From Monosiga brevicollis MX1 (taxonomy: Eukaryota), in assembly GCF_000002865.3 (NCBI RefSeq), contig NW_001865076.1, forward strand, positions 199,570-263,569: a stretch of 64,000 bases of DNA. Reading direction: 5' to 3'. The stretch's first letter is position 1, and each line of letters begins with the position of its first letter. The notes under the pieces are model-generated. The model was not told the origin of the DNA, ran no database searches, and saw nothing but the letters and a program-made list of their open reading frames with translations. A program made the translations under genes and the position numbers. This document shows, piece after piece, positions 16,949 through 23,935 of the stretch.

Positions 16949-19900
16949 CTAGTCGGCTGTGTAGTAGACGACTAGCTCGGGGTAGATTTGATCATTGTCA
17001 AACACAACCACCTCGTGAAACTGCCCGGCCGGTGTGGCAATGACCGAGTCGTATCTAGGAAAAAAGCCGCAAGCAATTGGATGGGGGCATAACTCGGCTG
17101 TGGTAGCCAATGTGCAAAAGGTCGGTCAGCTCAGCTCACGTACCGTTCGTTATTGGGCGCTTCGGGCAAGAGTGGAGGGGCCAGCGCTCCAGAGCTGGGT
17201 GCTTGATGAACAAAAGCTTGACCCAGAAGAGCTCGCGTAACGATCAACATGCGCTCGCCGTTCGGTCCCGGTGTGGCATACTGGTGACTCTGCAAAACAC
17301 ACCAAAACATGGTTAATTTTGGAAAAATGCGTTTAGATCACTCGCAGCGTTTTCGTCCACGGCAATGCTCACACCTTGCCCGGATGGTCGGCGTGGTAGA
17401 CGCCCAGCCCAAACCGAGTACCAGCCCCGTTCCCGGCAAAGCGATAGTCCAAGCCCAGGCGCACAATCTTGTCGCGCTGCGAGTCGTCATAAGCAATTCC
17501 ATGAAATAACAAGCGCTCCTGGCAAAGCGCCTCCTGAAGTAAGGCCGGCTGTCCCGGCAGCGCATCAACGGTTGCCGTGCAGAGGCGAGCAAAGTGCTCG
17601 TGATCTTTCGTGTGCTGCACCATCTCGCGTCTCTTTCTGCTATAGCGCTCCCACAGAACAGCGTTTTGCACACGCTCCACTCGCTGCACGATCATGTTTT
17701 TTGGGCCCCGCCCGTCGGCATTCAGCTGCTGCAAAAGCTCTGTTACCTAATGACCAGAGCGTGATATAAGTCACATGTTCGGTGCATTCCATCGCAAACG
17801 CTCGGAATCGAGCCGTTGACACACCTCAGGCACGAGCTCGGGTGCGTCGCGTAAGATTTCGACTGCGGGCGCAATGTGAGCAACAGTGGTCGGCTGCTGG
17901 GTGAATTGGGCTGCACTGAGAAGACTTGGACGCATTTTCGGGTCCGTGGAAAGAAACGACCGCGTTTCCTTGTAGAGATCACTCGTGGCATCGCACATCT
18001 ACAAGATGAACAACGAATCGGTCAGTTGCAGAGAAAGGTGCATGTTCATGAAGCAGGACAAAAACGTTGCACCAACCTCGGCGGCCAGGTGCGGAAAGTT
18101 GAGCATGGTTGCGTCAGCTTTCGAGTTCCATTGACATTGCTGAATCACGTCTTTCAGCTGCGGATGAGCAGGAGGCACCGTCTGCGGAAACATGTAAGTA
18201 TTATAGAGAACGCAGCCGAATGAAAAGGCATCTTGCGTTGGGCGCGCACCCACGCGACCACGGCCAAAGAGAACTTCGGGTGCCACATAGCCTGATGTTC
18301 CGACTGATGCGGTGGCGGTGCAGGGCAGCATAGTAGCTTCCACGGCGGCCTTGGCGATATCAAAATCGCCCAGACGCACAACGGGCTGATCCTCCTCGCC
18401 GTCTAACATGACGTTGCTCAGCTTGACATCACGGTGCACCAGACCCCTGCTGTGCATAAAAGCCAGGGCCGCTCGCAGCTGGGCCATTATCCCAGCAACA
18501 ATGTTGGAGGTGGCCTGCTGCCGGGCCCGGCTGAGCCACTGCTGCAGGTCACCTTGCGCACACCACGGCTGCACCAAGAACGCACTCGGGTGGCCGCTGT
18601 TCACTTCAACCAGTGCATGCAGAACCGGGACAATGTGCGGATGCTCAAGCCGGCGCATGGCGCGGAGTTCACGGAGAAAGGTGCGACACTGATCCTGCTT
18701 GCGCTGCTGAACAAAAACGTACTCCTTGACGGCCAAATCTTGTTCGGGACACCTCGGGAGCGCGGCACGGGCTTTGTAGACTTTGTGGTTTTGGACGTAG
18801 TGAACTTCAAGTCGGCCCAAACTAGAGAGCGCCAAGCCCTGGTCAACCTCGGTCATGGCCTCCAAAATTAGGGTGGCCGGAAGATCTGGACCGAGCACGG
18901 TGCAGAGGCGGGCACCCAAAGAGCTCTGCCTGGGGTTTAAAAACACCAGTAGGGTTGGAAAGTGTTGATGCAGTAGCTCTGTCAGCTCGATGACGTGGTC
19001 CACACGCGATTGTCCTGAAAGTTGCTCTTGTAAGGCAGCATGTCGTTTTTTCAATTCTGCCAGGTTTTGCTCGAGCCCGGAGCGCATGTCTTGCGGGGCA
19101 ACGCTCAAAAACTTATCAGCAGCCTTGATTTGTTCGTGTAGCTTGTCTAGTTCCTCGTGTGACGCCCCATCCTCATCGACATGACCCTGGACCAGATTGC
19201 TAGCCAAGCTCATGCATGATTTCAGTGCAGACAGCGTCGTCTCCTGCCATGTGATCATGTCTTGCAATTGCTTAACCAAGGCCTGTGACTCGTGAAGCAC
19301 AAACGTCAAGTACCAGCCCTGATGCTCGTAATCGGGAGGGGCTTGCCATTGGGCAACTTGCATAAGGCCGTTCAGCTTGGATAAGCTGAGCTCATTGTGT
19401 GCTTGGACAAGCTGTTCCCAGGCCTCGGGCAAAACCTTGGGCGGAGGTGCTTCGCTCACGTCCTGGCAGCGCGCAAGATTCCGTAACGTGTCCACGCGAT
19501 GGATGGTGTCGCTCGTTCCTGCTTTTGCCACAGCGTCCAGCGCATCGATGAATGACAGAATCAGGCACTTGAGACTGTTGTTGGAGCTGGTCAGCAGCTC
19601 TTGGAGCTCGGGTCCCACTTTGCTCAGTGCAATGACCTTGTCCAGGGCCGCTGCCAGGTTGGTGGGCGGTGCATTTGGTGAGGATGCTGGTGCCGTAGGC
19701 GGCGCGGGGCAGGCTGTTAGCGCAGTCTGTAGCTTATGAAGAATCTTTTTCAGCTTAAACTTGGCTGTGAGAGCATGCAACTCTTGAAGCACCGCTTCTA
19801 GATTGTCAGAGCTTGAATCCAGCTGGCTCAAGCGGTTGTTCAGTGCTTCTGGCACCCTTAGTGCTTGATCGAGTGCGTCAAGGGCTGTGGCAGTGATCTT

Positions 19901-22900: not shown

Positions 22901-23935
22901 ATCTCCACCACCTTGACATCACCCTCACTGCAGGCCTTGTGCAGTGGTGTCGTGCCGTTCTGCGGGTCCATGCATCAGCATGACGTACAACATCATTGTC
23001 ATATGCCACAGGTGCACCAGAATGGGAGCATCAGAGGGTGGGTACGGGGGAGATCGAGGCAAAAAAATTAGGAAACGGTCATTCAAAGCTGCTTGGGTGC
23101 GCAAGGGAGGCAGAGGCGCGATAACAAGGGGTGGGATGGTGCCCGGATTGAAGGCAAGTCGCAGGTAGCTCCGACACAACGCGGACGCAAAACGGGGGAT
23201 GAAGAGGGATAGCGGAAAAGAAAAGGAAGAGCGGGAAAGAAGAAGTGGGCAGGGTGTAGAGGGGCGAGGGGACGGGGGACGGGGGCAAACGCGACGGGGC
23301 AGCGGGAGCAGGAGCAGCAGCCAGAGGGGGTAAAGGGGGAGAGGAGGGAGGTACTGTACTGACGTTGTTCTTGGCTTTAGCATCAGCACCGTGCTTCAAC
23401 AGCATCTCCACCACCTTGACATGACCGTGATAGCAGGCCCAGTGCAGTGGTGTATTGCCGCACTGTGGGATGATGCATCAGCATGACGTACAGGTACAGC
23501 ATCAGCATCAGCATCATCATCATCAGCATCGTGTGGTACAGGTGCACCATCACAATGGGGGTCAAGGGGGGAAGAGGGAGGTACTGTACTGACGTTGTCC
23601 TTGGCTTTAGCATCAGCACCGTGCTTCAACAGCATCTCCACCACCTTGACATGACCCTTACCGCAGGCATTGTGCAGTGGTGTACTGCCCTGTGGGATGA
23701 TGCAAACATGCAGTATATGTCCCATGTGATACCATAACGTCACCCCATCTAGTGACATATTCAAAGTGTAACCAATATCACACAACATCATACCAAACAG
23801 CATACGTACCCAACCACCTTTGTATTGGGCAGCACGTCGAATACGTTGTTGGTCCCAACTGGTCAACAGCTGCAGCGCCTTTTGTGGATCTGATGAACCA
23901 CACGCATCCCACAGCTGCGCTCCATCATCACTCAT
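16949..23935 (-). CDS. Ankyrin-repeat / coiled-coil / protein kinase / PARP-catalytic fusion protein, 17 exons (one ankyrin exon frameshifted)
   Basis: Exons: 23935-23810, 23689-23594, 23462-23364, 22959-22861, 22627-22529, 22446-22348, 22247-22149, 21898-21800, 21549-21453 (97 nt), 21353-21255, 20932-20834, 20337-20215, 20107-18077, 17998-17825, 17746-17375, 17289-17144, 17054-16949, all GT-AG and phase-compatible apart from the 97-nt exon. Kinase motifs AVKEY, HRDVKLSN, GDFDIAK, GTSGYVAPE. PARP motifs RVQNAVLWERY, LLFHG, FGLGVY, KSHQY, RALLG, YDSV, FHEVVVFDNDQIYPELVVYY. Confidence 0.85.
21527..22234. repeat. Near-perfect 349-bp tandem duplication of one ankyrin exon + intron unit
   Basis: Exon starts at 21549, 21898 and 22247 are spaced exactly 349 bp and the intron sequences look identical. 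Confidence 0.92.

Follow-up and report, generated by a model that had tools for sequence, protein, structure and literature searches.

Among ADP-ribosyltransferases, an N-terminal array of ankyrin (ANK) repeats combined with a C-terminal PARP catalytic domain bearing a His-Tyr-Glu (H-Y-E) triad is found in the tankyrases (PARP5a and PARP5b; Clade 4), in which 15-18 repeats are followed by a SAM domain and the PARP domain (Citarelli et al., 2010; PMC2964712). Ankyrin repeats and PARP were united independently in the Clade 1 proteins ADPRT3 of Dictyostelium and PME-5 of C. elegans, whose catalytic domain is PARP1-like and which also contain WGR and PRD. An N-terminal ankyrin array may also be followed by a kinase or a pseudokinase, as in ILK and TNNI3K, which are without an ADP-ribosyltransferase domain. 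Here we describe a gene of the holozoan choanoflagellate Monosiga brevicollis MX1 in which an ankyrin array, a protein kinase domain and a PARP domain stand in one reading frame. It lies on a stretch of 64,000 nucleotides (assembly GCF_000002865.3, contig NW_001865076.1, positions 199,570 to 263,569 of the forward strand), hereafter the window, and all positions below are counted from the first letter of the window.

M. brevicollis is known for its shuffled signalling domains. A literature search found no description of a kinase-PARP union or of the accessions concerned; the family may be treated in the M. brevicollis kinome study of Manning et al. (2008). Within the limits of this search, the architecture, an uncommon one, is undescribed, as an initial annotation made from the sequence alone had supposed, but the gene itself is already in public databases, where its product is automatically named a PARP, and it belongs to a set of about 25 paralogues. 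With respect to PARPs, M. brevicollis is counted among the lineages with an ANK-PARP combination by Perina et al. (PMC4245714), in the main text of which the terms "protein kinase" and "kinase domain" are absent. Citarelli et al. (2010; PMC2964712) list three M. brevicollis PARPs, none of which belongs to the present family, and Sowa et al. (PMC9688111) detected no tankyrase in M. brevicollis.

The gene is split, with 17 exons on the minus strand (23935..16952, followed by the stop codon), and reading of its splice sites gives a product of about 1354 amino acids. From the N- to the C-terminus, this comprises an N-terminal cap, 10 ankyrin repeats, a C-terminal cap, a helical region of 426 amino acids, the kinase and the PARP domain (Table 1). 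In a stop-to-stop list of open reading frames, the same locus appears as a 765-residue open frame (17999-20296) with short ankyrin-like frames upstream and PARP-like pieces downstream. The parts are nevertheless one expressed gene with one reading frame. Four public sequencing runs were aligned, out of the 12 with sequence from this stretch, and no run is recorded as RNA. The spliced contigs of runs X3 and X4, which come from one study, reveal their RNA origin; run X1 behaves like DNA, because its contigs cover introns without joints (e.g., one contig spans 19301-21309). In the contigs of X3 and X4, CT..AC joints (GT..AG on the gene strand) occur at 10 of the 16 junctions, including the three (18077/17998, 17825/17746 and 20215/20107) for which the initial annotation had proposed an RNA check. 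One X4 contig runs from 19299 into the cap exon and on to the last ANK exon, one X3 contig joins the large exon to the kinase C-terminal exon and the first PARP exon, and within the large exon the contigs overlap by 27-30 nucleotides. The joints, all in frame, chain the last ANK exon (exon 11) and the cap exon to the large helical/kinase exon, and this in turn to the exon with the kinase C-terminus and to the three exons for PARP, and they bear out in two runs the single polypeptide that had been proposed. We consider it likely that the locus is a single expressed gene for a soluble, dual-enzyme protein of about 1354 amino acids with the order ANK-helical region-kinase-PARP, and that it belongs to a species-restricted family of about 25 paralogues.

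Table 1. Positions of the ANK-kinase-PARP gene, its parts and its neighbours in the window.
Feature	Position	Strand	Evidence or remark
Exon 1	23810..23935	-	start codon 23935-23933; 42 codons, helical cap at the N-terminal end of the array
Ten ANK exons, one repeat each	20834..23689	-	motif scan, splice sites, Pfam Ank, RNA joints
ANK exons 2-6	23689-23594, 23462-23364, 22959-22861, 22627-22529, 22446-22348	-	
ANK exons 7-11	22247-22149, 21898-21800, 21549-21453, 21353-21255, 20932-20834	-	
349-bp tandem unit (one ANK exon and its intron)	21465..22270	.	Tandem Repeats Finder: 2.3 copies, 97% identity, score 1521
Ankyrin C-terminal cap (half repeat NGKTPLD...) and Pro-rich linker	20215..20337	-	translation; RNA joints 20337/20834, 20107/20215
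Large exon (helical region and most of the kinase)	18077..20107	-	
All-helical region, family-specific, 426 amino acids	18830..20107	-	Pfam, AF2, Foldseek, homologue search
Protein kinase domain	17825..18829 (exons 18829-18077 and 17998-17825)	-	Pfam Pkinase; RNA joint 17998/18077
Kinase motifs	beta3 Lys 18727-18725; alphaC Glu 18670-68; HRD 18436-18428; Asn 18415-13; DFD (for DFG) 18367-18359; APE 18283-18275	-	
Kinase C-terminal exon	17825..17998	-	
PARP catalytic domain, three exons	16952..17746	-	Pfam PF00644; RNA joints 17746/17825, 17289/17375, 17054/17144
Three PARP exons	17746-17375, 17289-17144, 17054-16952	-	
PARP residues	His 17503-17501; triad Tyr (GLGVY) 17398-17396; second Tyr (SHQY) 17280-17278; Glu 17014-17012	-	
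Stop codon TAG	16949..16951	-	sequence read
Joints on the PARP/kinase side	17054/17144, 17289/17375, 17746/17825, 17998/18077		runs X3/X4
Joints on the cap/ANK side	20107/20215, 20337/20834, 20932/21255, 21549/21800, 22247/22348, 22627/22861		runs X3/X4
MIP/aquaporin	12719-13477	+	match on open frame, 7e-44
Bmt2 rRNA methyltransferase	27040-27813	-	match on open frame, 4e-55
Spartan-like zinc-binding domain	28914-29978	+	match on open frame, 7e-22
Protein kinase	61329-62147	-	match on open frame, 2.5e-34

When the three minus-strand frames of the whole window were scanned for the motif G.T.LH.A, ten ankyrin cores were found, all within 20929-23689, in agreement with the roughly ten repeats first reported; Pfam Ank matches were obtained in 8 of 15 translations tested. 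The number of full repeats is ten, plus the two caps. Each ANK exon measures 99 nucleotides (96 for the first), is in phase 0 and has AG/GT at its borders. Upstream of the array, exon 1 is preceded by an in-frame stop six codons before its start codon, ends in the donor TGG/GTACGT (GT at 23809-08) and encodes an N-terminal sequence similar to the start of a paralogue, P0003; we infer its junction with exon 2. Exons 7 and 8 differ by a single residue, and the 349-bp tandem unit is a recent exon duplication. The window holds no second member of the family, as tblastn with P0003 gave matches only at 16955-23938.

The large exon was searched with HMMER against 1.84 billion representative proteins. 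The protein that is 100% identical over this exon, P0002 (1045 amino acids; MONBRDRAFT_12449, XP_001750370.1, A9VCB1), is from M. brevicollis MX1 itself, and is labelled "uncharacterized" by NCBI and "Poly [ADP-ribose] polymerase" by the automatic naming of UniRef. This public model is about 300 amino acids too short. It begins inside exon 9, which is frameshifted in the assembly, reads through a 99-nucleotide intron (21452-21354) and leaves out 67 codons at the start of the large exon, whereas the RNA joint lies at 20107; eight repeats and the N-terminal cap are therefore missing from it. The two nucleotides lacking in exon 9 are probably the cause of this truncation, and the same annotation error probably affects paralogues. 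Because of such short models, the family is counted too low or described wrongly in surveys of PARPs and of kinases.

The C-terminal domain matches PF00644, with E=1.9e-7 and 31.2 bits for the open frame of the first PARP exon (17369-17746) and 47 bits for P0002 against a cut-off of 26.7. The PARP part was also compared with the sequences of all PDB chains, which yielded 49 matches at E≤1. The best were PARP12 (52.3 bits, E 5e-13) and PARP15 (51.8 bits, E 7e-13), with PARP14 (31.4 bits), tankyrase-2 (30.2), PARP10 (25.9) and tankyrase-1 (22.6) behind them; PARP1-3 were not among the 49. Residues 76-206 of the 207 in the query align to residues 72-193 of 198 in PARP12 and 72-197 of 197 in PARP15. 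The matches with these two proteins include an N-terminal helix motif, (V/I)ER(V/I)QN..LW..Y, and a C-terminal YPE motif, and an insertion of about 25 amino acids precedes the His. Since the alignment extends to the C-terminal ends of both chains, the domain may, by its sequence, be called complete, as had been proposed, and its transferase fold is predicted to extend through the last strands.

The His, the Tyr of GLGVY and the Glu fall opposite H, Y and I of PARP12, at spacings of +32 and +96 (with the residue numbers of the PARP12 triad taken as an assumption). The initial annotation was right about the triad as such and about its His and Glu; the Tyr that it had chosen, in SHQY, is a second conserved Tyr and not that of the triad. 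Among 20 domains of the paralogues, all have the triad Tyr and 19 have the His; the Glu occurs in 18 of the 19 domains that reach this position. By these comparisons the transferase appears to be PARP12/15-like with the H-Y-E triad kept, and it is predicted to be competent, given the conservation of the triad in the family and the complete fold in the alignment. An ability to form poly(ADP-ribose), which had been linked to H-Y-E, does not follow from it: the triad is needed but not sufficient for chain formation, and PARP3 and PARP4 carry it yet are mono-transferases (PMC9189837). The domain may add ADP-ribose singly or in chains.

The resemblance to tankyrases concerns layout. The ankyrin array is N-terminal, the PARP domain with its H-Y-E triad is C-terminal, and a kinase occupies, together with the helical region, the place of the SAM domain, as first noticed. 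No SAM domain was found by Pfam, either in the large exon (E≤0.01) or in P0002 (E≤0.001); the array has ten repeats rather than 15-18; and the catalytic domain is closer to PARP12/15 (52 bits) than to tankyrase-2 (30) or tankyrase-1 (23). In SAM, repeat number and catalytic similarity alike, the protein departs from the tankyrases and so is not one of them, and of the earlier description "tankyrase-like" it is the parallel in layout that holds. By analogy, the middle module could organise the protein as SAM does in tankyrases.

The Clade 3 mono-ADP-ribosyltransferases PARP12 and PARP15 are the best sequence matches of the catalytic domain, which by the pairwise scores of PARP12, 15, 14 and 10 in the PDB comparison resembles this clade (PARP7 and PARP9-15) and may group with it. 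The trait of Clade 3, replacement of the Glu by I/L/V/M/T, is not seen here; where PARP12 has an Ile, the M. brevicollis domain keeps the Glu. A single Clade 3 protein retains the Glu in the set of Citarelli et al. (PMC2964712). Of the accompanying domains of Clade 3, macro, WWE, RRM and CCCH zinc-finger domains were not found by Pfam in P0002 or P0003, and, in contrast to ADPRT3 and PME-5, the protein is without WGR and PRD.

The kinase is recognized by Pfam Pkinase (PF00069) with E=3.8e-35 on the large exon, and with 125.5 bits in P0002 against a cut-off of 31.7; the catalytic Lys, HRD and APE motifs mentioned in the initial annotation were all located. In all 16 kinase domains of the family that were compared, AVK, RELR, HRDVKLSN, GDFD and APE are invariant. 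HRDxKxxN and GYVAPE are the forms found in Ser/Thr kinases, and by its motifs the domain would be of the Ser/Thr type. The nearest kinases outside the family share at most 40% identity with it and are a mixture of generic Ser/Thr kinases from an oomycete, a planctomycete, a fungus and a dinoflagellate; this does not indicate orthology with any non-family kinase.

Homologue searches returned 13 matches for the helical region and 23 for the PARP domain, all of them M. brevicollis paralogues. The gene is therefore not singular; in the databases searched, the family appears to comprise about 25 paralogues found only in M. brevicollis. According to precomputed Pfam assignments for the 23 PARP matches, PARP is present in 20, Pkinase in 21, Ankyrin in 10 and all three in 8; exons of a single repeat readily escape detection, as they did in this gene, and the true ankyrin counts are therefore probably higher. 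P0003, P0151, P0153, P0162 and P0167 have the same domain order. A profile built from 20 PARP domains of the family matched 25 of 170 collected proteins, all of them family members; within those 170, the top non-family relatives of the kinase gave no match to the PARP profile. Mean pairwise identity within the family is 82% for the kinase, 74% for the PARP domain and 59% for the helical region. Several paralogues come from contigs of equal length and are thus probably located on the same contigs, which, together with the 349-bp repeat of exon and intron, points to recent duplication.

Three other models deserve mention. P0006 (A9UXM3, 1842 amino acids) is a distant member with ANK, helical region, kinase, a partial PARP domain (932-1087) and a Fringe-like glycosyltransferase domain (1123-1298), which may be a third output domain or the result of a fused gene model. 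P0001 (XP_001751049.1, partial, 1306 amino acids) has two full tandem kinase domains plus kinase and PARP fragments, as though a tandem pair had been collapsed or wrongly joined. In the P0005 model, ANK follows PARP.

For the helical region, which had been estimated at about 400 amino acids, no Pfam family was found. Its AF2 model is all-helical, with 18 helices and a mean pLDDT of 67; as this confidence is only middling, the fold is not claimed as new. With Foldseek, nothing in the PDB matched at E≤0.001 (the best, with E 0.045, were axonemal coiled coils). The highest Z of VIA-align against 48,161 chains was 9.5, for a generic helical hairpin of 57 residues, which lies under the level of helical noise, and the ESM Atlas gave no usable match. 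The prediction of a two-copy complex scored 0.01, which weighs neither way on self-association. Across the protein, the highest 19-residue Kyte-Doolittle mean is 1.31, against the 1.6 usual for a membrane helix. It is predicted to be soluble, with no membrane helix, and the term "receptor" that was initially applied to it is unsupported because no membrane segment was found.

Several observations weigh against the reading of a single gene for a dual-enzyme protein, and they are set out here and in the next paragraphs with the explanations that they would favour. Five of the 16 junctions (E1-2, 2-3, 3-4, 5-6 and 9-10) are absent from the joints of X3 and X4, and for the junction of exon 7 with exon 8 there is an ambiguous joint that "goes back 99", the two exons being near-identical. 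The first ankyrin exons are at least 95% identical to many other expressed genes of M. brevicollis. At 23299-23772 the RNA runs reach depths in the thousands, and the contigs show numerous loose ends as well as joints that lead to other sequence; the depth implies that the first ANK exons are common to many transcripts, and because ANK exons are shared with many paralogues, contigs in this interval are not assignable to this gene. Nor can contigs prove a single full-length molecule. This last point would be expected if ANK, kinase and PARP belonged to separate adjacent genes that prediction had fused, and some paralogue models do look fused or cut (P0005 with its ANK after PARP, P0006 with its Fringe domain). 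Against such an artefact, each boundary between parts is an in-frame spliced joint in two runs, no stop codon or start context occurs between the parts, and the same order recurs in many paralogues on different contigs; we regard it as extremely improbable.

Also on the adverse side, ANK exon 9 has 97 nucleotides in the assembly, which breaks the frame, and its intact form has been seen in a single RNA contig of one run. In this contig, from X3 with a depth of 136, position 21506 is followed by two additional bases, which make the exon 99 nucleotides long and restore the ankyrin text; with them, the coding sequence is 4062 nucleotides, or 1354 codons. Were the deletion real, this would be a decaying copy, and any functional product would be the short protein of the public model, with two or three ankyrin repeats. 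The start of that model within exon 9 fits this view, as does the depth of 0.94 of the DNA-like run X1 in the bin 21403-21639. The X3 contig contradicts it, the joint 21549/21800 shows that exon 9 is spliced into the transcript, and the upstream ANK exons retain open frames and GT/AG sites. Moreover, runs X1, X3 and X4 all have T at 17408, where the assembly has C, and at 17417, where it has A, two third codon positions of the first PARP exon where both changes are silent and near which contigs break; since these differences are common to three runs, the assembly departs from the runs elsewhere too. A decaying copy seems to us very unlikely.

A further difficulty lies in the kinase. In 16 of 16 family domains the GxGxxG loop is absent, the sequence reading LGRLEVHYVQNHKVYKA in its place, and DFD stands for DFG. 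A missing glycine loop and an altered DFG are also seen in pseudokinases. If the domain were a pseudokinase, it would serve as a scaffold or nucleotide sensor, the transferase would be the sole enzyme and one mark would be written; the Pfam match, which begins only at profile position 24, agrees with this. On the other hand, the same 16 domains show no variation in the beta3 Lys, the alphaC Glu, the Asp of HRD, the catalytic Asn, the Asp that binds metal or APE, and with 82% mean identity the kinase is the best-conserved part of the family. Catalytic residues so conserved would not be expected of a dead kinase, and we hold the pseudokinase explanation to be rather unlikely, the invariance of these residues suggesting instead a competent kinase.

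The ankyrin surface, finally, says little for the dual-enzyme reading. Over 22 paralogue repeats, variability peaks at repeat positions 8, 1, 11, 3 and 12 (2.4-3.3 bits) and the framework is invariant; in designed ankyrin proteins, these are the positions that face the groove. Variable surface positions are typical of any ankyrin protein, so that they constitute weak evidence and no proof of diversifying selection.

Taking the locus as a gene for a dual-enzyme protein, its mode of action can be outlined as follows. The protein would be cytosolic and targeted by its ankyrin array, which would recruit a protein partner or substrate. Kinase and transferase could then both modify this partner, each other or themselves, and the helical region would probably act as a scaffold or regulator. 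One recognition event would in this way leave two marks, phosphate and ADP-ribose derived from NAD+.

The family occurs in tandem clusters, shows a recent duplication of an exon and is confined to one species, all of which suggests that it turns over fast; this in turn suggests an environmental role (prey, pathogens, stress) rather than a housekeeping one. A defence role is speculation with low odds. Its sole grounds are that the family is expanded and limited to one species and that PARP12-15 of animals have antiviral roles. In its boldest form, the roughly 25 genes would be choanoflagellate-specific, fast-turnover cytosolic sensors, each array recognizing a different foreign or stress protein and triggering a dual-mark response, and the PARP12/15-like domain with its Glu would represent the antiviral Clade 3 PARPs of animals before their chain-forming chemistry was lost; we put this forward as a long shot.

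The neighbouring genes (Table 1) are ordinary and unrelated to the ANK-kinase-PARP gene. At 32779-36195 on the minus strand, a 1138-residue open frame has a weak match to a Raf-like Ras-binding domain (2.5e-6) as its sole match; a 612-residue open frame overlaps it on the opposite strand, in a GC-rich stretch (0.59-0.64 GC). The window also contains an assembly gap of 50 N (63422-63471).

No living group is more closely related to animals than the choanoflagellates, and for this reason their signalling proteins reveal domain combinations that were tried before animals arose. The present family would provide an example from nature in which one ankyrin recognition module serves two enzymes that modify proteins. 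In addition, its PARP12/15-like domain, which has the Glu that those enzymes lost, bears on the divergence of mono- and poly-ADP-ribosylation.

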